This document shows positions 30,352 to 56,333 of a stretch of DNA of 64,000 bases, in pieces. The DNA is taken from contig OZ024740.1 in NCBI GenBank assembly GCA_964016885.1, forward strand, positions 421,414,001-421,478,000. Direction: 5' to 3'. Under the pieces are notes generated by a model. The model was given only the letters and a program-made list of their open reading frames with translations, was not told the DNA's origin and ran no database searches. How positions within the stretch are numbered: position 1 is the stretch's first letter; each line of letters opens with the position of its first letter. A program made the translations under genes and the position numbers. This stretch comes from Eledone cirrhosa. Taxonomy: Eukaryota.

Positions 30352-30546
30352 ACAATATAAAGGCTGCCGCACTGGTCTTCTGTAGAAATTGCTTATCACC
30401 AAGTCAACCCTAATTTATTCTTAACATCCTGTACCACATGCAACCACATTAGAAGCAGCACTATGACTGCATATATTAAGGAGGAGATAGTTATGGCATA
30501 GATGGCAACTGGAAGTTACTCTGAGGCAACCTGTGTATATATGTAT
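30352..30546 (+). repeat. ~190-bp segment duplicated at 33446-33640
   Basis: Near-identical CACTGGTCTTCTGTAGAAATTGCTTATCACCAAG...GAAGTTACTCTGAGGCA in both places. Confidence 0.92.
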
Positions 30547-33294: not shown

Positions 33295-33401
33295 AATATG
33301 TAGTTGAACTTTCTCTCCTATTTGTGCTGCAACATATTTAGAATTCAACTTCATTGACTGGACACTCCCGACATAGTCTACTTCTCGTAACTTCTTGGCA
33401 C
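33295..33401 (-). CDS. WDR19: WDR19 exon D (107 bp): (G)AKKLREVDYVGSVQSMKLNSKYVAAQIGEKVQLHI
   Basis: Acceptor attcag|GT, donor ATT|gtaagt. KVQLH motif. Phase 1 to phase 0. Confidence 0.92.
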
Positions 33402-33699
33402 CTGAATTACAGTTAATAGTAGACACAAATTAACACTATTGCTAACAACATAAAGGCTGTCTCACTGGTCTTCTGTAGAAATTGCTTATCACCAAGTCAA
33501 CCCTAATTTATTCTTAACATCCTGTACCACATGCAACCACATTAGAAGCAGCACTATGACTACATATGTTAAGGAGGAGATAGTCATGACATAGATGGCA
33601 ACTGGAAGTTACTCTGAGGCACCTGTGTATGTATGTATGTAATTACAGTTAATAGAAGACACAAATTAACAGCATTGCTAACATAGGTGATATAATTAG

Positions 33700-35662: not shown

Positions 35663-35777
35663 CTTTTTCATCGAGATAGTAAAACCAAGCTATGTTGTTC
35701 ATACCAACAGCAAGATGTGTTGGGCCTAAAGCAATAAATGACGGTTCTATAGCAATTGAAATGACCAGAGGGGATTC
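35663..35777 (-). CDS. WDR19: WDR19 exon C (115 bp): ESPLVISIAIEPSFIALGPTHLAVGMNNIAWFYYLDEK(G)
   Basis: Acceptor atttcag|GAA, donor G|gtaagt. HLAVGMNN.AWFY motif. Phase 0 to phase 1. Confidence 0.93.
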
Positions 35778-35890: not shown

Positions 35891-38800
35891 GACTGGGTGC
35901 TTTTTGTTGTGATACCAACATGACCACTTTACAGTGTGTACTGGGTGCTTTTTGTTGTGACACCAACATGACCACTTTACAGTGTGTACTGGGTGCTTTT
36001 TGTTGTGACACCAACATGACCACTTTACAGTGTGTACAGGGTGCTTTTTGTTGTGACACCAACATGACCACTTTACAGTGTGTACTGGGTGCTTTTTGTT
36101 GTGAAACCAACATGACCACTTTACAGTGTGTACTGGGTGCTTTTTGTTGTGACACCAACATGACTACTTTACAGTGTGTACTGGGTGCTTTTTGTTGTGA
36201 CACCAACATGACTAGTTTACAGTGTGTACTGGGTGCTTTTTGTTGTGACACCAACATGACCACTTTACAGTGTGTACTGGGTGCTTTTTGTTGTGAAACC
36301 AATATGACCACTTTACAGTGTGTACTGGGTGCTTTTTGTTGTGACACCAACATGACCACTTTACAGTGTGTACTGGGTACTTTTTGTTGTGACACCAACA
36401 TGAGCACTTTACAGTGTGTACTGGGTGCTTTTTGTTGTGACACCAACATGACCACTTTACAGTGTGTACTGGGTACTTTTTGTTGTGACACCAACATGAG
36501 CACTTTACAGTGTGTACTGGGTGCTTTTTGTTGTGACACCAACATGACCACTTTACAGTGTGTGCTGGGTGCTTTTTGTTGTGAAACCAACATGACCACT
36601 TTACAGTGTGTACTGGGTGCTTTTTGTTGTGACACCAACATGACCGCTTTACAGTGTGTACTGGGGGCTTTTTGTTGACACCAACATGACCACTTTACAG
36701 TGTGTACTGGGTGCTTTTTGTTGTGACACCAACATGAACATTTTACAGTGTGTACTGGGTGCTTTTTGTTGTGACACCAACATGACCACTTTACAGTGTG
36801 TACTGGGTGCTTTTTGTTGTGAAACCAACATAACCACTTTACAGTGTGTACTGGGTGCTTTTTGTTGTTAAACCAACATGACCACTTTACAGTGTGTACT
36901 GGGTGCTTTTTGTTGTGACACCAACATGACCATTTTACAGTGCGTACTGGGTGCTTTTTGTTGTGACACCAACATGACCACTTTACAGTGTGTACTGGGT
37001 GCTTTTTGTTGTGAAACAAACATGACCACTTTACAGTGTGTACTGGGTGCTTTTTGTTGACACCAACATGACCATTTTACAGTGTGTACTGGGTGCTTTT
37101 TGTTGTGACACCAACATGAACATTTTACAGTGTGTACTGGCTGCTTTTTGTTGTGACACCAACATGACCCCTTTACAGTGTGTACTGGGTGCTTTTTGTT
37201 GTGAAACCAACATAACCACTTTACAGTGTGTACTGGGTGCTTTTTGTTGTGAAACCAACATGACCACTTTACAGTGTGTACTGGGTGCTTTTTGTTGTGA
37301 CACCAACATGACCATTTTACAGTGCGTACTGGGTGCTTTTTGTTGTGACACCAACATGACCACTTTACAGTGTGTACTGGGTGCTTTTTGTTGTGAAACA
37401 AACATGACCACTTTACAGTGTGTACTGGGTGCTTTTTGTTGACACCAACATGACCACTTTACAGTGTGTACTGGGTGCTTTTTGTTGTGACACCAACATG
37501 AACATTTTACAGTGTGTACTGGCTGCTTTTTGTTGTGACACCAACATGACCCCTTTACAGTGTGTACTGGGTGCTTTTTGTTGTGACACCAACATGACTA
37601 CTTTACAGTGTGTACTGGGTGCTTTTTGTTGTGAAACCAACATGACAACTTTACAGTGTGTACTGGGTGCTTTTTGTTGTGAAACCAACATGACCACTTT
37701 ACAGTGTGTACTGGGTGCTTTTTGTTGTGACACCAACATGACCACTTTACAGTGTGTACTGGGTGCTTTTTGTTGTGAAACCAACATGACCACTTTACAG
37801 TGTGTACTGGGTGCTTTTTGTTGTGAAACCAACATGACCACTTTACAGTGTGTACTGGGTGCTTTTTGTTGTGACACCAACATGACTACTTTACAGTGTG
37901 TACTGGGTGCTTTTTGTTGTGACACCAACATGACTAGTTTACAGTGTGTACTGGGTGCTTTTTGTTGTGACACCAACATGACCACATTACAGTGTGTGCT
38001 GGGTGCTTTTTGTTGTGAAACCAACATGACCACTTTACAGTGTGTACCGGGTGCTTTTTGTTGTGACACCAACATGACCACTTTACAGTGTGTACAGGGT
38101 GCTTTTTGTTGTGACACCAACATGACCACTTTACAGTGTGTACTGGGTGCTTTTTGTTGTGAAACCAACATGACCACTTTACAGTGTGTACTGGGTGCTT
38201 TTTGTTGTGACACCAACATGACTACTTTACAATGTGTACTGGGTGCTTTTTGTTGTGACACCAACATGACTAGTTTACAGTGTGTACTGGGTGCTTTTTG
38301 TTGTGACACCAACATGACCACTTTACAGTGTGTACTGGGTGCTTTTTGTTGTGAAACCAATATGACCACTTTACAGTGTGTACTGGGTGCTTTTTGTTGT
38401 GACACCAACATGACCACTTTACAGTGTGTACTGGGTACTTTTTGTTGTGACACCAACATGAGCACTTTACAGTGTGTACTGGGTGCTTTTTGTTGTGACA
38501 CCAACATGACTACTTTACAGTGTGTACTGGGTGCTTTTTGTTGTGAAACCAACATGACCACTTTACAGTGTGTACTGGGTGCTTTTTGTTGTGAAACCAA
38601 CATGACCACTTTACAGTGTGTACTGGGTGCTTTTTGTTGTGACACCAACATGACCACTTTACAGTGTGTACTGGGTACTTTTTGTTGTGACACCAACATG
38701 AGCACTTTACAGTGTGTACTGGGTGCTTTTTGTTGTGACACCAACATGACCACTTTACAGTGTGTGCTGGGTGCTTTTTGTTGTGAAACCAACATGACCA

Positions 38801-41800
38801 CTTTACAGTGTGTACTGGGTGCTTTTTGTTGTGACACCAACATGACCGCTTTACAGTGTGTACCTGGGGCTTTTTGTTGACACCAACATGACCACTTTAC
38901 AGTGTGTACTGGCTGCTTTTTGTTGTGACACCAACATGAACATTTTACAGTGTGTACTGGGTGCTTTTTGTTGTGACACCAACATGACCACTTTACAGTG
39001 TGTACTGGGTGCTTTTTATTGTGAAACCAACATAACCACTTTACAGTGTGTACTGGGTGCTTTTTGTTGTGAAACCAACATGACCACTTTACAGTGTGTA
39101 CTGGGTGCTTTTTGTTGTGACACCAACATGACCATTTTACAGTGCGTACTGGGTGCTTTTTGTTGTGACACCAACATGACCACTTTACAGTGTGTACTGG
39201 GTGCTTTTTGTTGTGAAACAAACATGACCACTTTACAGTGTGTACTGGGTGCTTTTTGTTGACACCAACATGACCACTTTACAGTGTGTACTGGGTGCTT
39301 TTTGTTGTGACACCAACATGAACATTTTACAGTGTGTACTGGGTGCTTTTGTTGTGATACCAACATGACTAGTTTACAGTGTGTACTGGGTGCTTTTTGT
39401 TGTGACACCAACATGACTACTTTACAGTGTGTACTGGGTGCTTTTTGTTGTGAAACCAACATGAAAACTTTACAGTGTGTACCGGGTGCTTTTTGTTGTG
39501 AAACCAACATGACCACTTTACAGTGTGTACTGGGTGCTTTTTGTTGTGACACCAACATGACCACTTTACAGTGTGTACTGGGTGCTTTTTGTTGTGACAC
39601 CAACATGACCACTTTACAGTGTGTACTGGGTGCTTTTTGTTGTGAAACCAACATGACCACTTTACAGTGTGTACTGGGTGCTTTTTGTTGTGACACCAAC
39701 ATGACTACTTTACAGTGTGTACTGGGTGCTTTTGTTGTGATACCAACATGACTAGTTTACAGTGTGTACTGGGTGCTTTTTGTTGTGACACCAACATGAC
39801 CACTTTACAGTGTGTACTGGGTGTTTTTTGTTGTGACACCAACATGACTACTTTACAGTGTGTACTGGGTGCTTTTTGTTGTGACACCAACATGACTAGT
39901 TTACAGTGTGTACTGGGTGCTTTTTGTTGTGACACCAGCATGACCACTTTACAGTGTGTACTGGGTGCTTTTTGTTGTGAAACCAATATGACCACTTTAC
40001 AGTGTGTACTGGGTGCTTTTTGTTGTGACATCAACATGACCACTTTACAGTGTGTACTGGGTACTTTTTGTTGTGACACCAACATGAGCACTTTACAGTG
40101 TGTACTGGCTGCTTTTTGTTGTGACACCAACATGACCACTTTACAGCGTGTACTGGGTGCTTTTTGTTGTGAAACCAACATGACCACTTTACAGTGTGTA
40201 CTGGGTGCTTTTTGTTGTGAAACCAACATGACCACTTTACAGTGTGTACTGGGTGCTTTTTGTTGTGAAACCAACATGACCACTTTACAGTGTGTACTGG
40301 GTGCTTTTTGTTGTGAAACCAACATGACCACTTTATAGTGTGTACTGGGTGCTTTTTGTTGTGACACCAACATGACAACTTTACAGTGTGTACTGGGTGC
40401 TTGTTGTTGTGACACCAACATGACCACTTTACAGTGTGTACTGGGTGCTTTTTGTTGTGACACCAACATGACCACTTTACAGTGCGTACTGGGTGCTTTT
40501 TGTTGTGACACCAACATGACTAGTTTACAGTGTGTACTGGGTGCTTTTTGTTGTGACACCAACATGACCACTTTACAGTGTGTACTGGGTACTTTTTGTT
40601 GTGACACCAACATGAGCACTTTACAGTGTGTACTGGGTGCTTTTTGTTGTGACACCAACATGACCACTTTACAGTGTGTACTGGGCGCTTTTTGTTGTGA
40701 CACCAACATGACCACTTTACAGTGTGTACTGGGTGCTTTTTGTTGTGAAACCAACATGACCACTTTACAGTGTGTACTGGGTGCTTTTTGTTGTGAAACC
40801 AACATGACCACTTTACAGTGTGTACTGGGTGCTTTTTGTTGTGAAACCAACATGACCACTTTACAGTGTGTACTGGGTGCTTTTTGTTGTGACACCAACA
40901 TGACCACTTTACAGTGTGTACTGGGTGCTTGTTGTTGTGACACCAACATGACCACTTTACAGTGTGTACTGGGTGCTTTTTGTTGTGACACCAACATGAC
41001 CACTTTACAGTGCGTACTGGGTGCTTTTTGTTGTGACACCAACATGACCACTTTACAGTGTGTACTGGGTGCTTTTTGTTGTGACACCAACATGACTACT
41101 TTACAGTGTGTACTGGGTGCTTTTTGTTGTGAAACCAACATGACCACTTTACAGTGTGTACTGGGTGCTTTTTGTTGCGACACCAACATGACCACTTTAC
41201 AGTGTGTACTGGGTACTTTTTGTTGTGACACCAACATGAGCACTTTACAGTGTGTACTGGGTGCTTTTTGTTGTGACACCAACATGACCACTTTACAGTG
41301 TGTGCTGGGTGCTTTTTGTTGTGAAACCAACATGACCACTTTACAGTGTGTACTGGGTGCTTTTTGTTGTGACACCAACATGACCATTTTACAGTGCGTA
41401 CTGGGTGCTTTTTGCTGTGACACCAACATGACCACTTTACAGTGTGTACTGGGTGCTTTTTGTTGTGAAACAAACATGACCACTTTACAGTGTGTACTGG
41501 GTGCTTTTTGTTGACACCAACATGACCACTTTACAGTGTGTACTGGGTGCTTTTTGTTGTGACACCAACATGAACATTTTACAGTGTGTACTGGCTGCTT
41601 TTTGTTGTGACACCAACATGACCCCTTTACAGTGTGTACTGGGTGCTTTTTGTTGTGAAACCAACATAACCACTTTACAGTGTGTACTGGGTGCTTTTTG
41701 TTGTGAAACCAACATGACCACTTTACAGTGTGTACTGGGTGCTTTTTGTTGTGACACCAACATGACCATTTTACAGTGCGTACTGGGTGCTTTTTGTTGT

Positions 41801-44800
41801 GACACCAACATGACCACTTTACAGTGTGTACTGGGTGCTTTTTATTGTGAAACCAACATAACCACTTTACAGTGTGTACTAGGTGCTTTTTGTTGTGAAA
41901 CCAACATGACCACTTTACAGTGTGTACTGGGTGCTTTTTGTTGTGACACCAACATGACCATTTTACAGTGCGTACTGGGTGCTTTTTGTTGTGACACCAA
42001 CATGACCACTTTACAGTGTGTACTGGGTGCTTTTTGTTGTGAAACAAACATGACCACTTTACAGTGTGTACTGGGTGCTTTTTGTTGACACCAACATGAC
42101 CACTTTACAGTGTGTACTGGGTGCTTTTTGTTGTGACACCAACATGAACATTTTACAGTGTGTACTGGGTGCTTTTTGTTGTGACACCAACATGACCCCT
42201 TTACAGTGTGTACTGGGTGCTTTTTGTTGTGACACCAACATGACTACTTTACAGTGTGTACTGGGTGCTTTTTGTTGTGAAACCAACATGAAAACTTTAC
42301 AGTGTGTACTGGGTGCTTTTTGTTGTGAAACCAACATGACCACTTTACAGTGTGTACTGGGTGCTTTTTGTTGTGACACCAACATGACCACTTTACAGTG
42401 TGTACTGGGTGCTTTTTGTTGTGACACCAACATGACCACTTTACAGTGTGTACTGGGTGCTTTTTGTTGTGAAACCAACATGACCACTTTACAGTGTGTA
42501 CTGGGTGCTTTTTGTTGTGACACCAACATGACTACTTTACAGTGTGTACTGGGTGCTTTTGTTGTGATACCAACATGACTAGTTTACAGTGTGTACTGGG
42601 TGCTTTTTGTTGTGACACCAACATGACCACTTTACAGTGTGTGCTTGGTGCTTTTTGTTGTGAAACCAACATGACCACTTTACAGTGTGTACTGGGTGCT
42701 TTTTGTTGTGACACCAACATGACCACTTTACAGTGTGTACAGGGTGCTTTTTGTTGTGACACCAACATGACCACTTTACAGTGTGTACTGGGTGCTTTTT
42801 GTTGTGAAACCAACATGACCACTTTACAGTGTGTACTGGGTGTTTTTTGTTGTGACACCAACATGACTACTTTACAGTGTGTACTGGGTGCTTTTTGTTG
42901 TGACACCAACATGACTAGTTTACAGTGTGTACTGGGTGCTTTTTGTTGTGACACCAACATGACTACTTTACAGTGTGTACTGGGTGCTTTTTGTTGTGAA
43001 ACCAATATGACCACTTTACAGTGTGTACTGGGTGCTTTTGGTTGTGACATCAACATGACCACTTTACAGTGTGTACTGGGTACTTTTTGTTGTGACACCA
43101 ACATGAGCACTTTACAGTGTGTACTGGCTGCTTTTTGTTGTGACACCAACATGACCACTTTACAGCGTGTACTGGGTGCTTTTTGTTGTGAAACCAACAT
43201 GACCACTTTACAGTGTGTACTGGGTGCTTTTTGTTGTGAAACCAACATGACCACTTTACAGTGTGTACTGGGTGCTTTTTGTTGTGAAACCAACATGACC
43301 ACTTTATAGTGTGTACTGGGTGCTTTTTGTTGTGACACCAACATGACAACTTTACAGTGTGTACTGGGTGCTTGTTGTTGTGACACCAACATGACCACTT
43401 TACAGTGTGTACTGGGTGCTTTTTGTTGTGACACCAACATGACCACTTTACAGTGCGTACTGGGTGCTTTTTGTTGTGACACCAACATGACTAGTTTACA
43501 GTGTGTACTGGGTGCTTTTTGTTGTGACACCAACATGAGCACTTTACAGTGTGTACTGGGTGCTTTTTGTTGTGACACCAACATGACCACTTTACAGTGT
43601 GTACTGGGCGCTTTTTGTTGTGACACCAACATGACCACTTTACAGTGTGTACTGGGTGCTTTTTGTTGTGAAACCAACATGACCACTTTACAGTGTGTAC
43701 TGGGTGCTTTTTGTTGTGAAACCAACATGACCACTTTACAGTGTGTACTGGGTGCTTTTTGTTGTGACACCAACATGACCACTTTACAGTGTGTACTGGG
43801 TGCTTTTTGTTGTGACACCAACATGACTACTTTACAGTGTGTACTGGGTGCTTTTTGTTGTGAAACCAACATGACCACTTTACAGTGTGTACTGGGTGCT
43901 TTTTGTTGCGACACCAACATGACCACTTTACAGTGTGTACTGGGTACTTTTTGTTGTGACACCAACATGAGCACTTTACAGTGTGTACTGGGTGCTTTTT
44001 GTTGTGACACCAACATGACCACTTTACAGTGTGTGCTGGGTGCTTTTTGTTGTGAAACCAACATGACCACTTTACAGTGTGTACTGGGTGCTTTTTGTTG
44101 TGACACCAACATGACCGCTTTACAGTGTGTACTGGGAGGCTTTTTGTTGACACCAACATGACCACTTTACAGTGTGTACTGGGTGCTTTTTGTTGTGACA
44201 CCAACATGAACATTTTACAGTGTGTACTGGGTGCTTTTTGTTGTGACACCAACATGACCACTTTACAGTGTGTACTGGGTGCTTTTTGTTGTGAAACCAA
44301 CATAACCACTTTACAGTGTGTACTGGGTGCTTTTTGTTGTGAAACCAACATGACCACTTTACAGTGTGTACTGGGTGCTTTTTGTTGTGACACCAACATG
44401 ACCATTTTACAGTGCGTACTGGGTGCTTTTTGTTGTGACACCAACATGACCACTTTACAGTGTGTACTGGGTGCTTTTTGTTGTGAAACAAACATGACCA
44501 CTTTACAGTGTGTACTGGGTGCTTTTTGTTGACACCAACATGACCACTTTACAGTGTGTACTGGGTGCTTTTTGTTGTGACACCAACATGAACATTTTAC
44601 AGTGTGTACTGGCTGCTTTTTGTTGTGACACCAACATGACCCCTTTACAGTGTGTACTGGGTGCTTTTTGTTGTGAAACCAACATAACCACTTTACAGTG
44701 TGTACTGGGTGCTTTTTGTTGTGAAACCAACATGACCACTTTACAGTGTGTACTGGGTGCTTTTTGTTGTGACACCAACATGACCATTTTACAGTGCGTA

Positions 44801-47800
44801 CTGGGTGCTTTTTGTTGTGACACCAACATGACCACTTTACAGTGTGTACTGGGTGCTTTTTGTTGTGAAACAAACATGACCACTTTACAGTGTGTACTGG
44901 GTGCTTTTTGTTGACACCATGACCACTTTACAGTGTGTACTGGGTGCTTTTTGTTGTGACACCAACATGAACATTTTACAGTGTGTACTGGCTGCTTTTT
45001 GTTGTGACACGAACATGACCCATTTACAGTGTGTACTGGGTGCTTTTTGTTGTGACACCAACATGACTACTTTACAGTGTGTACTGGGTGCTTTTTGTTG
45101 TGAAACCAACATGACAACTTTACAGTGTGTACTGGGTGCTTTTTGTTGTGAAACCAACATGACCACTTTACAGTGTGTACTGGGTGCTTTTTGTTGTGAC
45201 ACCAACATGACCACTTTACAGTGTGTACTGGGTGCTTTTTGTTGTGACACCAACATGACCACTTTACAGTGTGTACTGGGTGCTTTTTGTTGTGAAACCA
45301 ACATGACCACTTTACAGTGTGTACTGGGTGCTTTTTGTTGTGACACCAACATGACTACTTTACAGTGTGTACTGGGTGCTTTTTGTTGTGACACCAACAT
45401 GACTAGTTTACAGTGTGTACTGGGTGCTTTTTGTTGTGACACCAACATGACCACATTACAGTGTGTGCTGGGTGCTTTTTGTTGTGAAACCAACATGACC
45501 ACTTTACAGTGTGTACCGGGTGCTTTTTGTTGTGACACCAACATGACCACTTTACAGTGTGTACAGGGTGCTTTTTGTTGTGACACCAACATGACCACTT
45601 TACAGTGTGTACTGGGTGCTTTTTGTTGTGAAACCAACATGACCACTTTACAGTGTGTACTGGGTGCTTTTTGTTGTGACACCAACATGACTACTTTACA
45701 GTGTGTACTGGGTGCTTTTTGTTGTGACACCAACATGACTAGTTTACAGTGTGTACTGGGTGCTTTTTGTTGTGACACCAACATGACCACTTTACAGTGT
45801 GTACTGGGTCATTTTTGTTGTGAAACCAATATGACCACTTTACAGTGTGTACTGGGTGCTTTTTGTTGTGACACCAACATGACCACTTTACAGTGTGTAC
45901 TGGGTACTTTTTGTTGTGACACCAACATGAGCACTTTACAGTGTGTACTGGGTGCTTTTTGTTGTGACACCAACATGACCACTTTACAGTGTGTACTGGG
46001 TGCTTTTTGTTGTGAAACCAACATGACCACTTTACAGTGTGTACTGGGTGCTTTTTGTTGTGAAACCAACATGACCACTTTACAGTGTGTACTGGGTGCT
46101 TTTTGTTGTGAAACCAACATGACCACTTTATAGTGTGTACTGGGTGCTTTTTGTTGTGACACCAACATGACAACTTTACAGTGTGTACTGGGTGCTTGTT
46201 GTTGTGACACCAACATGACCACTTTACAGTGTGTACTGGGTGCTTTTTGTTGTGACACCAACATGACCACTTTACAGTGCGTACTGGGTGCTTTTTGTTG
46301 TGACACCAACATGACCACTTTACAGTGTGTACTGGGTGCTTTTTGTTGTGACACCAACATGACTACTTTACAGTGTGTACTGGGTGCTTTTTGTTGTGAA
46401 ACCAACATGACCACTTTACAGTGTGTACTGGGTGCTTTTTGTTGTGAAACCAACATGACCACTTTACAGTGTGTACTGGGTGCTTTTTGTTGTGACACCA
46501 ACATGACCACTTTACAGTGTGTACTGGGTGCTTTTTGTTGTGACACCAACATGACCACTTTACAGTGTGTACTGGGTGCTTTTTGTTCTGAAACCAACAT
46601 GACCACTTTACAGTGTGTACTGGGTGCTTTTTGTTGTGACACCACATGACTAGTTTACAGTGTGTACTGGGTGCTTTTTGTTGTGACACCAACATGACCA
46701 CTTTACAGTGTGTACTGGGTGCTTTTTGTTGTGACACCAACATGACCACTTTACAGTGCGTACTGGGTGCTTTTTGTTGTAACACCAACATGACCACTTT
46801 ACAGTGTGTACTGGGTGCTTTTTGTTGTGAAACCAACATGACCACTTTACAGTGTGTACTGGGTGCTTTTTTTTGACACCAACATGACCACTTTACAGTG
46901 TGTACTGGGTGCTTTTTGTTGTGACACCAACATGAACATTTTACAGTGTATACTGGGTGCTTTTTGTTGTGACACCAACATGACCACTTTACAGTGTGTA
47001 CTGGGTGCTTTTTGTTGTGACACCAACATGACTACTTTACAGTGTGTACTGGGTGCTTTTTGTTGTGAAACCAACATGACAACTTTACAGTGTGTACTGG
47101 GTGCTTTTTGTTGTGAAACCAACATGACCACTTTACAGTGTGTACTGGGCGCTTTTTGTTGTGACACCAACATGACCACTTTACAGTGTGTACTGGGTGC
47201 TTTTTGTTGTGAAACCAACATGACCACTTTACAGTGTGTACTGGGTGCTTTTTGTTGTGAAACCAACATGACCACTTTACAGTGTGTACTGGGTGCTTTT
47301 TGTTGTGACACCAACATGACCACTTTACAGTGTGTACTGGGTGCTTTTTGTTGTGACACCAACATGACTACTTTACAGTGTGTACTGGGTGCTTTTTGTT
47401 GTGAAACCAACATGACCACTTTACAGTGTGTACTGGGTGCTTTTTGTTGCGACACCATCATGACCACTTTACAGTGTGTACTGGGTACTTTTTGTTGTGA
47501 CACCAACATGAGCACTTTACAGTGTGTACTGGGTGCTTTTTGTTGTGACACCAACATGACCACTTTACAGTGTGTGCTGGGTGCTTTTTGTTGTGAAACC
47601 AACATGACCACTTTACAGTGTGTACTGGGTGCTTTTTGTTGTGACACCAACATGACCGCTTTACAGTGTGTACTGGGAGGCTTTTTGTTGACACCAACAT
47701 GACCACTTTACAGTGTGTACTGGGTGCTTTTTGTTGTGACACCAACATGAACATTTTACAGTGTGTACTGGGTGCTTTTTGTTGTGACACCAACATGACC

Positions 47801-50800
47801 ACTTTACAGTGTGTACTGGGTGCTTTTTGTTGTGAAACCAACATAACCACTTTACAGTGTGTACTGGGTGCTTTTTGTTGTGAAACCAACATGACCACTT
47901 TACAGTGTGTACTGGGTGCTTTTTGTTGTGAAACAAACATGACCACTTTACAGTGTGTACTGGGTGCTTTTTGTTGACACCATGACCACTTTACAGTGTG
48001 TACTGGGTGCTTTTTGTTGTGACACCAACATGAACATTTTACAGTGTGTACTGGCTGCTTTTTGTTGTGACACGAACATGACCCATTTACAGTGTGTACT
48101 GGGTGCTTTTTGTTGTGACACCAACATGACTACTTTACAGTGTGTACTGGGTGCTTTTTGTTGTGAAACCAACATGACAACTTTACAGTGTGTACTGGGT
48201 GCTTTTTGTTGTGAAACCAACATGACCACTTTACAGTGTGTACTGGGTGCTTTTTGTTGTGACACCAACATGACCACTTTACAGTGTGTACTGGGTGCTT
48301 TTTGTTGTGACACCAACATGACCACTTTACAGTGTGTACTGGGTGCTTTTTGTTGTGAAACCAACATGACCACTTTACAGTGTGTACTGGGTGCTTTTTG
48401 TTGTGACACCAACATGACTACTTTACAGTGTGTACTGGGTGCTTTTTGTTGTGACACCAACATGACTAGTTTACAGTGTGTACTGGGTGCTTTTTGTTGT
48501 GACACCAACATGACCACATTACAGTGTGTGCTGGGTGCTTTTTGTTGTGAAACCAACATGACCACTTTACAGTGTGTACCGGGTGCTTTTTGTTGTGACA
48601 CCAACATGACCACTTTACAGTGTGCTTTTTGTTGTGACACCAACATGACCACTTTACAGTGTGTACTGGGTGCTTTTTGTTGTGAAACCAACATGACCAC
48701 TTTACAGTGTGTACTGGGTGCTTTTTGTTGTGACACCAACATGACTACTTTACAGTGTGTACTGGGTGCTTTTTGTTGTGACACCAACATGACTAGTTTA
48801 CAGTGTGTACTGGGTGCTTTTTGTTGTGACACCAACATGACCACTTTACAGTGTGTACTGGGTGCTTTTTGTTGTGAAACCAATATGACCACTTTACAGT
48901 GTGTACTGGGTGCTTTTTGTTGTGACACCAACATGACCACTTTACAGTGTGTACTGGGTACTTTTTGTTGTGAAACCAACATGAGCACTTTACAGTGTGT
49001 ACTGGGTGCTTTTTGTTGTGACACCAACATGACCACTTTACAGTGTGTACTGGGTGCTTTTTGTTGTGAAACCAACATGACCACTTTACAGTGTGTACTG
49101 GGTGCTTTTTGTTGTGAAACCAACATGACCACTTTACAGTGTGTACTGGGTGCTTTTTGTTGTGAAACCAACATGACCACTTTATAGTGTGTACTGGGTG
49201 CTTTTTGTTGTGACACCAACATGACAACTTTACAGTGTGTACTGGGTGCTTGTTGTTGTGACACCAACATGACCACTTTACAGTGTGTACTGGGTGCTTT
49301 TTGTTGTGACACCAACATGACCACTTTACAGTGCGTACTGGGTGCTTTTTGTTGTGACACCAACATGACCACTTTACAGTGTGTACTGGGTGCTTTTTGT
49401 TGTGACACCAACATGACTACTTTACAGTGTGTACTGGGTGCTTTTTGTTGTGAAACCAACATGACCACTTTACAGTGTGTACTGGGTGCTTTTTGTTGTG
49501 AAACCAACATGACCACTTTACAGTGTGTACTGGGTGCTTTTTGTTGTGACACCAACATGACCACTTTACAGTGTGTACTGGGTGCTTTTTGTTCTGAAAC
49601 CAACATGACCACTTTACAGTGTGTACTGGGTGCTTTTTGTTGTGACACCAACATGACCACTTTACAGTGTGTACTGGGTGCTTTTTGTTGTGAAACCAAT
49701 ATGACCACTTTACAGTGTGTACTGGGTGCTTTTTGTTGTGACACCAACATGACCACTTTACAGTGTGTACTGGGTACTTTTTGTTGTGAAACCAACATGA
49801 GCACTTTACAGTGTGTACTGGGTGCTTTTTGTTGTGACACCAACATGACCACTTTACAGTGTGTACTGGGTGCTTTTTGTTGTGAAACCAACATGACCAC
49901 TTTACAGTGTGTACTGGGTGCTTTTTGTTGTGAAACCAACATGACCACTTTACAGTGTGTACTGGGTGCTTTTTGTTGTGAAACCAACATGACCACTTTA
50001 TAGTGTGTACTGGGTGCTTTTTGTTGTGACACCAACATGACAACTTTACAGTGTGTACTGGGTGCTTGTTGTTGTGACACCAACATGACCACTTTACAGT
50101 GTGTACTGGGTGCTTTTTGTTGTGACACCAACATGACCACTTTACAGTGCGTACTGGGTGCTTTTTGTTGTGACACCAACATGACCACTTTACAGTGTGT
50201 ACTGGGTGCTTTTTGTTGTGACACCAACATGACTACTTTACAGTGTGTACTGGGTGCTTTTTGTTGTGAAACCAACATGACCACTTTACAGTGTGTACTG
50301 GGTGCTTTTTGTTGTGAAACCAACATGACCACTTTACAGTGTGTACTGGGTGCTTTTTGTTGTGACACCAACATGACCACTTTACAGTGTGTACTGGGTG
50401 CTTTTTGTTCTGAAACCAACATGACCACTTTACAGTGTGTACTGGGTGCTTTTTGTTGTGACACCACATGACTAGTTTACAGTGTGTACTGGGTGCTTTT
50501 TGTTGTGACACCAACATGACCACTTTACAGTGTGTACTGGGTGCTTTTTGTTGTGACACCAACATGACCACTTTACAGTGCGTACTGGGTGCTTTTTGTT
50601 GTAACACCAACATGACCACTTTACAGTGTGTACTGGGTGCTTTTTGTTGTGAAACCAACATGACCACTTTACAGTGTGTACTGGGTGCTTTTTGTTGACA
50701 CCAACATGACCACTTTACAGTGTGTACTGGGTGCTTTTTGTTGTGACACCAACATGAACATTTTACAGTGTATACTGGGTGCTTTTTGTTGTGACACCAA

Positions 50801-52456
50801 CATGACCACTTTACAGTGTGTACTGGGTGCTTTTTGTTGTGACACCAACATGACTACTTTACAGTGTGTACTGGGTGCTTTTTGTTGTGAAACCAACATG
50901 ACAACTTTACAGTGTGTACTGGGTGCTTTTTGTTGTGAAACCAACATGACCACTTTACAGTGTGTACTGGGTGCTTTTTGTTGTGACACCAACATGACCA
51001 CTTTACAGTGTGTACTGGGTGCTTTTTGTTGTGAAACCAACATGACCACTTTACAGTGTGTACTGGGTGCTTTTTGTTGTGACACCAACATGACCACTTT
51101 ACAGTGTGTACTGGGTGCTTTTTGTTGTGAAACCAACATGACCACTTTACAGTGTGTACTGGGTGCTTTTTGTTGTGACACCAACATGACCACTTTACAG
51201 TGTGTGCTGGGTGCTTTTTGTTGTGAAACCAACATGACCACTTTACAGTGTGTACTGGGTGCTTTTTGTTGTGACACCAACATGACCACTTTACAGTGCG
51301 TACTGGGTGCTTTTTGTTGTAACACCAACATGACCACTTTACAGTGTGTACTGGGTGCTTTTTGTTGTGAAACAAACATGACCACTTTACAGTGTGTACT
51401 GGGTGCTTTTTGTTGACACCAACATGACCACTTTACAGTGTGTACTGGGTGCTTTTTGTTGTGACACCAACATGAACATTTTACAGTGTATACTGGGTGC
51501 TTTTTGTTGTGACACCAACATGACCACTTTACAGTGTGTACTGGGTGCTTTTTGTTGTGACACCAACATGACTACTTTACAGTGTGTACTGGGTGCTTTT
51601 TGTTGTGAAACCAACATGACAACTTTACAGTGTGTACTGGGTGCTTTTTGTTGTGAAACCAACATGACCACTTTACAGTGTGTACTGGGTGCTTTTTGTT
51701 GTGACACCAACATGACCACTTTACAGTGTGTACTGGGTGCTTTTTGTTGTGAAACCAACATGACCACTTTACAGTGTGTACTGGGTGCTTTTTGTTGTGA
51801 CACCAACATGACCACTTTACAGTGTGTACTGGGTGCTTTTTGTTGTGAAACCAACATGACCACTTTACAGTGTGTACTGGGTGCTTTTTGTTGTGACACC
51901 AACATGACCACTTTACAGTGTGTGCTGGGTGCTTTTTGTTGTGAAACCAACATGACCACTTTACAGTGTGTACTGGGTGCTTTTTGTTGTGACACTAACA
52001 TGACCACTTTACAGTGTGTACTGGGTGCTTTTTGTTGTGACACCAACATGACCACTTTACAGTGTGTACTGGGTGCTTTTTGTTGTGAAACCAACATGAC
52101 CCCTTTACAGTGTGTAATGGGTGCTTTTTGTTGTGACACCAACATGACCACTTTACAGTGTGTACTGGGTGCTTTTTGTTGTGAAACCAATACGACCACT
52201 TTACAGTGTGTACTGGGTGCTTTTTGTTGTGACACCAACATGACCACTTTACAGTGTGTACTGGGTAATTTTTGTTGTGACACCAACATGAGCACTTTAC
52301 AGTGTGTGCTGGGTGCTTTTTGTTGTGACACCAACATGACCACTTTACAGTGTGTGCTGGGTGCTTTTTGTTGTGAAACCAACATGACCACTTTACAGTG
52401 TGTACTGGGTGCTTTTTGTTGTGACACCAACATGACCACTTTACAGTGTGTACTGG
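35891..52456. repeat. 48-bp satellite (GTACTGGGTGCTTTTTGTTGTGACACCAACATGACCACTTTACAGTGT)n, about 345 copies, intronic
   Basis: Direct reading; 16-aa periodic ORFs (MTTLQCVLGAFCCDTN). Confidence 0.99.
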
Positions 52457-54179
52457 ACTGTCACCTCAACAGTAATAAACACTCACATTATTGACAATGT
52501 TCTGGCTGTCACCTCAACAGTAATAAACACTCACTTTATTGACAATGTCCTGGACTGTCACCTCAACAGTAGTAAACACTCACATTATTGACAATGTCCT
52601 GGACTGTCACCTCAACAGTAATAAACACTCACTTTATTGACAATGTCCTGGACTGTCACCTCAACAGTAGTAAACACTCACATTATTGACAATGTCCTGG
52701 ACTGTCACCTCAACAGTACTAAACACTCACTTTATTGACAATGTCCTGGACTGTCACCTCAACAGTAGTAAACACTCACATTATTGACAATGTCCTGGAC
52801 TGTCACCTCAACAGTAATAAACACTCACTATATTGACAATGTCCTGGACTGTCACCTCAACAGTAATAAACACTCACTATATTGACAATGTCCTGGACTG
52901 TCACCTCAACAGTAATAAACACTCACATTATTGACAATGTCCTGGACTGTCACCTCAACAGTAATAAACACTCACTTTATTGACAATGTCCTGGACTGTC
53001 ACCTCAACAGTAATAAACTCACATTATTGACAATGTCCTGGACTGTCACCTCAACAGTAAGAAACACTCACTTTATTGACAATGTCCTGGACTGTCACCT
53101 CAACAGTAATAAACACTCACTTTATTGACAATTTCCTGGACTGTCACCTCAACAGTAATAAACACACATTATTGACAATGTCCTGGACTGTCACCTCAAC
53201 AGTAATAAACACTCACTATATTGACAATGTCCTGGACTGTCACCTCAACAGTAATAAACACTCACATTATTGACAATGTCCTGGACTGTCACCTCAACAG
53301 TAATAAACACTCACTTTATTGACAATGTCCTGGACTGTCACCTCAACAGTAATAAACACTCACATTATTGACAATGTCCTGGACTGTCACCTCAACAGTA
53401 ATAAACACTCACATTATTGACAATGTCCTGGACTGTCACCTCAACAGTAATAAACACTCACTATATTGACAATGTCCTGGACTGTCACCTCAACAGTAAT
53501 AAACACTCACTATATTGACAATGTCCTGGACTGTCACCTCAACAGTAATAAACACTCACTATATTGACAATGTCCTGGACTGTCACCTCAACAGTAATAA
53601 ACACTCACTATATTGACAATGTCCTGGACTGTCACATCAACAGTAATAAACACTCACTATATTGATAATGTCCTGGACTGTCACCTCAACAGTAATAAAC
53701 ACTCACATTATTGACAATGTCCTGGACTGTCACCTCAACAGTAATAAACACTCACATTATTGACAATGTCCTGGACTGTCACCTCAACAGTAATAAACAC
53801 TCACTATATTGACAATGTCCTGGACTGTCACCTCAACAGTAATAAACACTCACTATATTGACAATGTCCTGGACTGTCACCTCAACAGTAATAAACACTC
53901 ACTATATTGACAATGTCCTGGACTGTCACCTCAACAGTAATAAACACTCACTATATTGACAATGTCCTGGACTGTCACATCAACAGTAATAAACACTCAC
54001 TATATTGATAATGTCCTGGACTGTCACCTCAACAGTAATAAACACTCACATTATTGACAATGTCCTGGACTGTCACCTCAACAGTAATAAACACTCACAT
54101 TATTGACAATATCTTGCACTGTCACCTCAACAGTAATAAACACTCACTTTATTGACAATGTCTTGGACTGTCACCTCAA
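52453..54179. repeat. 49-bp tandem array made from the exon B donor junction, about 35 units
   Basis: Unit CTGGACTGTCACCTCAACAGTAATAAACACTCAC(TTT/ATT/TAT)ATTGACAATGTC. The right-most copy is the coding end of exon B (54148-54179). Confidence 0.97.
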
Positions 54180-54388
54180 GCAATGATGTTAAGTTAGCAA
54201 TACGTGTTTGGTAAGTGACAGCTAACATGGGTAATTTGGTCAAGAAAACCTGCAGGTGACCATACGACGTTGAAATTGCCATCAATTGCCCATCTTCAGT
54301 CCACTGCATTTTGTCAATGGTACAATCTTCTTTGAGTTGACGTATAGTATAGATTTCTTGTGGGTCATTCATTTCATGAATACGAACA
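54148..54388 (-). CDS. WDR19: WDR19 exon B (241 bp): VRIHEMNDPQ...WTEDGQLMAISTSYGHLQVFLTKLP...LTSLLEVTVQDIVNK
   Basis: Acceptor tttcatcttcag|T, donor AAA|gtgagt. Contained in ORF 54127..54408. Strong WDR19 motifs. Confidence 0.93.
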
Positions 54389-55479
54389 CTGAAGATGAAA
54401 TAAAACAAAAATAAAACTTAATTAAGTAATATTACCCTTTTGTGTCTTAACTTGTTGCTAATTAAATCTCATATCGTTATACATTGAACATCTGAGCAGT
54501 TAATTTATTCAGTCATAATTAGATTACTCAACAACTAGTACACATTTATTTTTCTGAAAATGATGGTTAACAACTTAAGATGTTTTGGTATTATTCTGAC
54601 CTCATCAGCAAAATAGCCCCCATTGTATTTTCCTGAGGAAATTATTGTACATTGATTGGCATAGGTAAACAGAATTGTATATTGTCTCTGAGTTATTTAT
54701 TCTCTACAGAATTCTGATGAGGTCAGAATAAGACTGAAATGTATCCAGTCATTTGTATTTGCAGAATAAAATGACTTCAAAGATGCTTTATAATGTTTCC
54801 TGTATTAAATATATTAATATTAACTGAACCCTCATACTACTAGTTTGACCAACTGTAATTCTGCTAGCCACTATGGCAGAAGATAGTAGTTTTCTCTGAT
54901 ATCACACAATTGGAATCAAACCCCAAACCACATGAGTGTGAAGTAAACTTCTAAACCAGACACCCATGTCAGTGGCATCAGATACATCATCATCATCATC
55001 ACCGTTTTACGTCCATTCTTCCAAGCTAGCAGGAGTTAGACAGGTTGTCCTGTTGTGGGCAGTGTCCAGTCGGCTGACTTTGTCTTGCTCATACAGGAAC
55101 TGGTTCTGGCTTGATTTCTACAGCTTGATGCCCTTCCTAACACCAACCTCATTTACAGTGAGTGTTGGGTGCTTTTTTACCGTGGCACCTCCACATCCAC
55201 TTTGCAGCGTGAGGGGCGGGGGCATATTGTCAATATGCTTCAGTTTCGACTTGTTTGAATATACAATGAATATATTTTATTAATCTCTAAAGGATGAAAA
55301 GTTCATCTCAATGAGATTACAATAATTGATATTACTGTTGATTCCAGTTAATTACATAACTTTTCAAGACATTAAATCATTTAACATCGAATATATGTAA
55401 AATTGATTGGTAAATTCCATATAGAAATAAAGTCAATTTTAGTTAATTGGTTAAAATTTTTCTCATTTTGAATTTAGAA

Positions 55480-56241: not shown

Positions 56242-56333
56242 CTGTTGCCACCAGATGTCGCTACTTTGTTCAAATATGGAGACAATGCAATATTTGTCAG
56301 GCCTTCTTTGTGGTCTAATGTTGAAAATAGTTC
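56242..56333 (-). CDS. WDR19: WDR19 exon A (92 bp): ELFSTLDHKEGLTNIALSPYLNKVATSGGN(S)
   Basis: Acceptor atcag|GAA, donor AG|gtaata. Ends phase 2, matching the 1-nt start of the next exon. Resembles human [30 protein letters not shown]. Confidence 0.9.

Follow-up and report, generated by a model that had tools for sequence, protein, structure and literature searches.

A recent minisatellite seeded on an exon-intron junction of WDR19 in Eledone cirrhosa

Which of some 35 near-identical 5' splice sites is used when the end of a coding exon and the start of its intron have been amplified in tandem, and does such an array serve the gene that carries it? Both questions are raised by a 49-bp minisatellite in the 64,000-nt stretch of DNA analyzed here (the window), the first unit of which consists of the last nucleotides of a WDR19/IFT144 exon and the first nucleotides of the following intron. 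An earlier note on this DNA, made from the letters alone, had described the array and offered three roles for it: inert, a rheostat acting through nonsense-mediated decay (NMD), or a loading platform for U1.

The host exon and the array

The identity of the host gene was borne out. The exon at 54388-54148 matches residues 298 to 375 of human WDR19 in a phmmer search (E 1e-17) and is 84% identical to two WDR19 proteins labelled Octopus. By tblastn, with 200 kb added on each side of the window, 35 WDR19 exons were mapped across 300 kb (window positions -159961 to 139885). Tandem repeats make up 81% of the gene, which holds 20 minisatellites with a period of at least 15 and at least four copies. 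The exon together with two units was found at no other place in a DNA search of the genome.

As a repeat, the 49-bp array far exceeds anything that chance would produce. Tandem Repeats Finder (TRF) placed it at 52449-54179, with 35.4 copies of period 49 and a 96% match, in agreement with the approximately 34 copies of the exon's donor reported earlier, and reading of the units upheld their composition of 32 exonic and 17 intronic nucleotides on the minus strand. In the array, GTGAGT occurs 34 times on that strand, from the true donor at 54147 down to 52486. Two details of the earlier description needed correction. The series of GTGAGT sites from 54098 to 52486 is present, but its spacing is not a constant 49 nt, because two units have 47 nt and one has 48 nt; GTGAGT is kept in 33 of the 34 downstream copies, the remaining unit having GTGTGT. 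The copies were also said to lie in their native exonic context, which is only approximately so: the letters before GT in the 34 downstream copies are AAA in 7, ATA in 13, and AAT in 14, with AAA absent from all 16 copies nearest the exon, and G replaces the exon's A at position -16 in 30 of the 31 full-length downstream units; the true junction alone combines this A with AAA.

The units are of 14 distinct types in an ordered pattern, ABCDEFFFCCDEFFFCCG..., in which a 7-unit internal block occurs twice (Table 1). This duplicated block may be read as pointing to growth through slippage or unequal exchange, and it suggests that the array is unstable; combined with private changes in the edge units, it gives a pattern that looks as in ordinary minisatellite turnover.

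Table 1. Features of the WDR19 array, its surroundings, and related arrays elsewhere in the genome (a slash marks an exon-intron boundary; positions are those of the window unless a locus is named)
Feature	Position	Strand	Basis or remark
49-bp minisatellite with 35 units and one partial unit of 17 nt	52453..54179	-	Each unit joins 32 nt of exon end to 17 nt of intron start
WDR19/IFT144 coding exon, 241 nt; last 32 nt = array unit 1	54148..54388	-	Homology and spliced contig
True 5' splice site AAA/GTGAGT, first of the series	54142..54147	-	Spliced X4 contig
Next WDR19 exon, acceptor at 35777	35663..35777	-	tblastn mapping and spliced contig
Previous WDR19 exon	56242..56333	-	tblastn mapping and spliced contig
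Unit 2, first wholly intronic copy	54082..54130	-	Private substitutions, frequent in array edge units
7-unit internal block occurring twice (units 4-10 and units 11-17)	53347..54032	-	Unit code
CCAG common to last partial 49-mer and 48-mer satellite; abrupt junction	52453..52456	-	
48-bp satellite (346 copies) unrelated to the 49-mer; occupies most of this 18.4-kb intron	35892..52456	.	TRF
AK9-like exon, donor reiterated in 49-bp array, 56 copies	L151 1950-2142	minus	G000:C9, about 39.3076 Mb
ECM29 N-terminal exon, donor reiterated in 41-bp array	L174 1950-2259	minus	G000:C9, about 10.599 Mb
Candidate exon-like starts of 49-bp arrays	L144 7600-7700; L145 7860-8040	plus	

Reality and age of the array

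The stretch 54033-54932, comprising the exon, upstream intron, and the first three units, was compared with four runs kept as contigs. Two of these, X1 and X3, are DNA runs of one sample, which may be the one used for the assembly, and the array is not spanned by any single contig; both points leave room for a short duplication mis-assembled into an expansion. The depth of array words agrees, however, with the assembled multiplicity. In X1, it was 77.4 and 20.4 against a single-copy depth of 2.91, giving ratios of 26.6 and 7.0 where the assembly predicts 24.7 and 5.8, and in X3, it was 107 against 8.98, giving a ratio of 11.9 where 15.7 is predicted, so the array exists at about its assembled size. 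The array contig of X3 has 79 nt, one period plus 30, and is a collapsed loop. A single-copy X3 contig leads out of the exon and enters unit 2, reaching 12 letters past the unit junction, and this contig and the ordered pattern of 14 unit types also speak against mis-assembly, which is thus extremely unlikely.

Run X5 belongs to another organism, a close relative (organism B) and the one species compared. Its contig (1142 nt, depth 17.8) covers 54129-54922 with 57 differences and 14 gaps over approximately 790 nt, eight of the listed differences falling within the exon. The exon is followed by 19 intron bases and then by 127 unrelated letters, and the junction is present once. The comparison of orthologous introns that had been proposed thus finds no array in organism B, and because a close relative has a single copy, the array is recent. 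It probably arose after the split from organism B, though loss in the relative would also be possible with one species. TT flanks the repeated segment at either end, as would suit a microhomology-guided tandem duplication. The relative's intron continuation after unit 1 was not found within the window; because of this absence and the abrupt end of the array in CCAG, the old intron start was probably deleted.

Relation to known systems

Arrays of this kind have been described before, contrary to the novelty that the earlier note implied (PMC1557585, PMC3087553, and PMC5954066). In the 37-bp VNTR of intron 7 of human F7, the most upstream site alone is used (PMC1557585); mutation tests showed no competition from downstream sites of equal or even greater strength, and a switch to the second site occurred only after loss of the first. 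According to the same paper, two of the 25 pseudo-sites of 6-16/IFI6 are used, as are two in intron 13 of CBS, and in the repeats of LMNB2 and of PDGF intron 4, the true site alone is used. The WDR19 array resembles the F7 type in that unit 1 straddles the exon-intron boundary, further copies of the donor follow in the intron, and the site seen in use is the most upstream. It differs in copy number (35, compared with 5 to 9 in F7 and 25 pseudo-sites in 6-16), in the exonic part of the unit (32 nt, compared with 4 nt in F7), and in having a mollusc as its host.

The amphioxus "mirages" of Adh3 and the globin genes BflGb6 and BflGb9 are tandem copies of exon-intron boundaries with normal splicing (PMC3087553). 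They share with the present case a minisatellite-like boundary duplication in an invertebrate, several loci per genome, normal splicing, and edge units that are less homogenized; they belong to another lineage, whereas the arrays here have 35 to 60 or more copies and lie amid giant satellites, which take up 81% of the gene. The WDR19 array has a head-to-tail unit within the range of about 10 to 160 bp, a terminal unit that spans a real exon-intron boundary, a reiterated splice signal, and, in one shallow library, a most upstream donor that is the main one used. By these four features, it belongs to the known class of F7-type VNTRs and amphioxus mirages. No cephalopod case was found in the literature searched, supplements lying outside the search, and the passages of PMC10078293 that were examined contain nothing on junction-spanning repeats.

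Two further systems are relevant to the downstream copies. The 25-bp VNTR in intron 18 of ABCA7 also includes its exon's donor, and use of the next copy leads to a frameshift or stop and predicted NMD; retention of one unit with a premature stop has been shown there (PMC5954066). The ABCA7 unit starts at GT without an exonic part, and decoy use is shown there, whereas none was seen here in the shallow X4 library. An in-frame stop also precedes the unused donors known as latent intronic 5' splice sites. Such sites match by chance and are scattered, while those here are copies of a real junction. PMC3510495 describes an in-frame stop before a latent intronic 5' splice site as the usual state of introns, and the stop before the decoy donors of WDR19 is therefore no sign of design.

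Use of the first donor

Run X4, a single shallow library kept as contigs and not recorded as RNA, was called RNA-like from its spliced joins alone. Its sole contig on the exon (1023 nt, depth 5.1) agrees with 54147-54391 at every position, and beyond that range its two ends correspond to 35747-35776 in the next exon and to 56245-56274 in the previous one. The contig is therefore spliced and uses the first donor, and it contains the junction 54148 to 35777, as expected from the acceptor predicted earlier. No decoy-spliced or intron-retaining contig was found in X4, the depth being 0 over 54033-54122 at a library depth of approximately 5, in a comparison that took in the first three units. With rare forms lost from contigs and so little depth, X4 displays the main form and may conceal a minor leak.

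The choice of the first donor is not explained by its sequence, since pairing with the U1 5' motif is predicted to be the same at the true site as in both common variants (-7.6, -7.4, and -7.6 kcal/mol, respectively). Weakening of the decoys by their variants at positions -1 and -2 was accordingly ruled out; the nearest donors in two further arrays described below, AK9-like and ECM29, are moreover identical to the true one. An array of recursive-splicing (ratchet) sites was also rejected, because AG precedes GT in none of the copies, the letters there being AAA, AAT, or ATA. CAGGTGAG, looked for as a ratchet-site mark, is absent from the 18.4-kb intron that carries the 49-bp array.

Read-through beyond the first donor gives V-S-V-Y-Y-C-stop, the premature stop announced in the earlier note. 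Unit 2 holds both the in-frame TGA (54129-54127) and, at 54098, the nearest of the decoy donors (AAT/GTGAGT). These features would suit an array that leaks in the manner of ABCA7, CBS, or IFI6, in which the second or third donor would be used measurably, the product would carry a premature stop and undergo NMD, and copy number would shift the output of WDR19. Such leakage could be a by-product or a tuned rheostat, and the rheostat idea has a precedent in the unit retention of ABCA7, where splicing is also reported to change with VNTR length (PMC5954066). Decoys with the predicted U1 pairing of the true donor (-7.4 to -7.6 kcal/mol) and the in-frame stop added by any decoy use are both in keeping with it. 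The shallow X4 run contains no decoy-spliced contig, however, and in F7 downstream sites of equal or greater strength do not compete (PMC1557585). Since a close relative is without the array, a conserved regulatory role is not indicated. A leak large enough to affect dosage is therefore unlikely, though of the alternatives to a mostly silent array, it is the most probable.

Chance expectation for the position, and other arrays in the genome

The position of the array on a splice junction is not beyond chance. When the seed units of the 20 minisatellites were placed randomly on the repeat-collapsed gene, approximately 1.0 junction-spanning array was expected over the 68 WDR19 splice sites, and one was seen; this estimate is local and post hoc, and it is slightly inflated because TRF gave two arrays at a multiple of the base period.

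The scan for other arrays at exon ends suggested in the earlier note did reveal further cases, with no sign of an excess of donor-motif arrays. The genome was searched for three AG/GTRAG-type words in tandem, and 40 arrays from among the matches listed, mainly of two periods and one donor class, were examined; one of the 21 listed period-49 arrays, two of the 18 period-41 arrays, and six short-unit or simple-repeat arrays were left out. The 5' end of the array was reached in 38 of the 40 (the exceptions being L160 and L167). Among 31 upstream frames of at least 20 aa compared with Pfam, one matched, with ECM29_N extending up to the donor (E 7e-13), and among four frames compared with solved structures, one matched adenylate kinase 9, the match again reaching the donor (E 1e-4). 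At least two of the 40 donor-motif arrays (AK9-like and ECM29) thus start at an exon end confirmed by homology, a number that is a floor because short or poorly conserved exons escape detection. In both, the nearest copies repeat the true donor unchanged. The five nearest copies of the AK9-like array are identical (CAG/GTGAGT), with later copies mostly GTATGT or GTACGT, and the ECM29 array comprises 62 copies, a 2.7-kb gap, and 55 further copies, with TAG/GTGAGT in 47 of the first 48. Since two of 40 is a floor obtained from mainly two periods and one donor class, a fair guess is that a hundred or more junction-seeded arrays exist per genome.

Raw match counts favored the donor motif over the control in all three scans (5542 versus 917, 120 versus 53, and 187 versus 51), which would tell against a chance position. 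An enrichment based on these counts was ruled out, because a few long arrays dominate them, and arrays were counted instead. At period 49, there were at least 21 donor-motif arrays (among the 100 of 120 matches listed) and 33 reversed-motif arrays (from all 51 matches), approximately 14 of which look by eye like one dispersed family, leaving approximately 19. Donor-motif arrays thus show no sign of excess over the reversed control motif at period 49.

Two more 49-bp arrays (L144 and L145) start with exon-like stretches that have a pyrimidine tract followed by AG, an open frame, and a donor at the first unit; these stretches had no match in Pfam or among solved structures.

Loss of AATAAA near the exon

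The exonic part of unit 1 ends in AATAAA (54148-54153), followed by the GU/U-rich start of the intron, so that perfect copies would form a row of intronic poly(A) signals. Of the 34 downstream copies, 7 keep AATAAA, all of them beyond the 16 nearest the exon, and two of the three common unit variants fall within it. This distribution could reflect selection, which would count against an entirely inert array: near-exon copies might have lost AATAAA under selection on 3'-end processing, and the U1 sites may guard the long, satellite-filled transcript from early cleavage. The 125-kb intron of the same gene, with 3,538 sense CAG/GTGAG words just past its donor, fits the latter part. The argument is post hoc, however, and the copies are not independent, since a 7-unit block has been duplicated and the pattern stems from approximately two mutations; for this reason, no permutation test was applied to the loss of AAA near the exon. 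Moreover, the nearest copies of the AK9-like and ECM29 arrays have kept the sequence of the true donor, the shallow X4 run showed no transcript ends within the intron, and organism B manages without the array. It is very improbable that selection on 3'-end processing or U1 loading shaped the array, and the loss of AATAAA, resting on approximately two mutations spread by duplication, is a lead only.

A broader version of this proposal is just as doubtful. It holds that junction-seeded arrays are common in satellite-bloated octopus genes and filtered by RNA processing, with near copies shedding AATAAA and rows of U1 sites kept to shield very long, repeat-filled transcripts. If it were true, tandem repeats would act as telescripting boosters that let introns grow, with 33 U1 sites here and thousands in the 125-kb intron.

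A probable by-product of repeat turnover, tolerated by the gene

The locus is probably best explained as a recent minisatellite that was seeded on the WDR19 exon-intron junction as a tolerated by-product of a very high tandem-repeat birth rate in this genome, the downstream copies being mostly silent. A 49-bp tandem duplication over the junction, guided by a 2-nt TT microhomology, would have occurred after the split from the close relative, and the order of the units suggests growth to approximately 35 copies by block duplication. The original intron start would have been lost at the 4-nt junction with the 48-bp satellite. At low depth, the first donor is seen joined to the next exon, and by analogy with the F7 experiments, the most upstream of equal donors would win by position. 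Exon definition would help it, as each further copy adds 49 nt to a 241-nt exon. In rare slips, a stop six codons past the exon would have at least 25 junctions after it, and NMD would clear such products; at so small a cost, the array could persist. Of the three roles proposed earlier, inertness is best supported, because the first donor is used, the relative is without the array, one overlap is expected by chance, and the donor motif is not in excess; the rheostat and the U1 platform gain no support from the shallow contigs examined here. The silence of downstream copies is judged from one shallow contig library (depth 5.1), from which rare forms are dropped, and it is not universal in the class, because the nearest copies are used to some level in IFI6 and CBS (PMC1557585) and in ABCA7 (PMC5954066).

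As a single locus, the array matters little, because its class is known and chance predicts such an overlap. It is of value as study material. Among the young arrays of this genome are at least three (WDR19, AK9-like, and ECM29) that offer 35 to 60 or more near-identical donors in conserved genes, and a close relative without the WDR19 array adds to this. The rule that the first of equal donors is chosen has been worked out mainly on human F7, and with these arrays and the array-less relative, deep RNA-seq could measure leakage in an invertebrate by copy and by distance.

Other repeats in and around WDR19

WDR19 holds single arrays of 125, 36, 33, 16.5, and 12.5 kb, and several arrays end approximately 10 to 50 nt from a splice site without crossing it. 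The 125-kb intron is filled by a 24-bp satellite of approximately 5,200 copies, which occupies 1-26434 of the window, continues to approximately 98 kb before the window start, and begins approximately 27 nt past the true donor of that intron. Its unit loosely resembles the adjacent real junction. The predicted U1 pairing of its 3,538 CAG/GTGAG words in the gene's sense is -11.1, compared with -11.5 for the true donor of that intron, and latent strong donors are far more numerous in this satellite than in the 49-mer array.

The 48-bp satellite at 35892-52456 resembles a dispersed element, with a similar stretch near 55130-55180, and also resembles the units of many other arrays in the genome, including the approximately 14 of 33 control-motif arrays grouped by eye. 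A single repeat family thus seems to seed satellites repeatedly in this genome, to judge from the likeness of the units. A stretch of approximately 170 to 200 nt occurs, by eye, twice in neighboring introns (33431-33660 and 30364-30540), and one of its copies directly precedes the acceptor at 33401.
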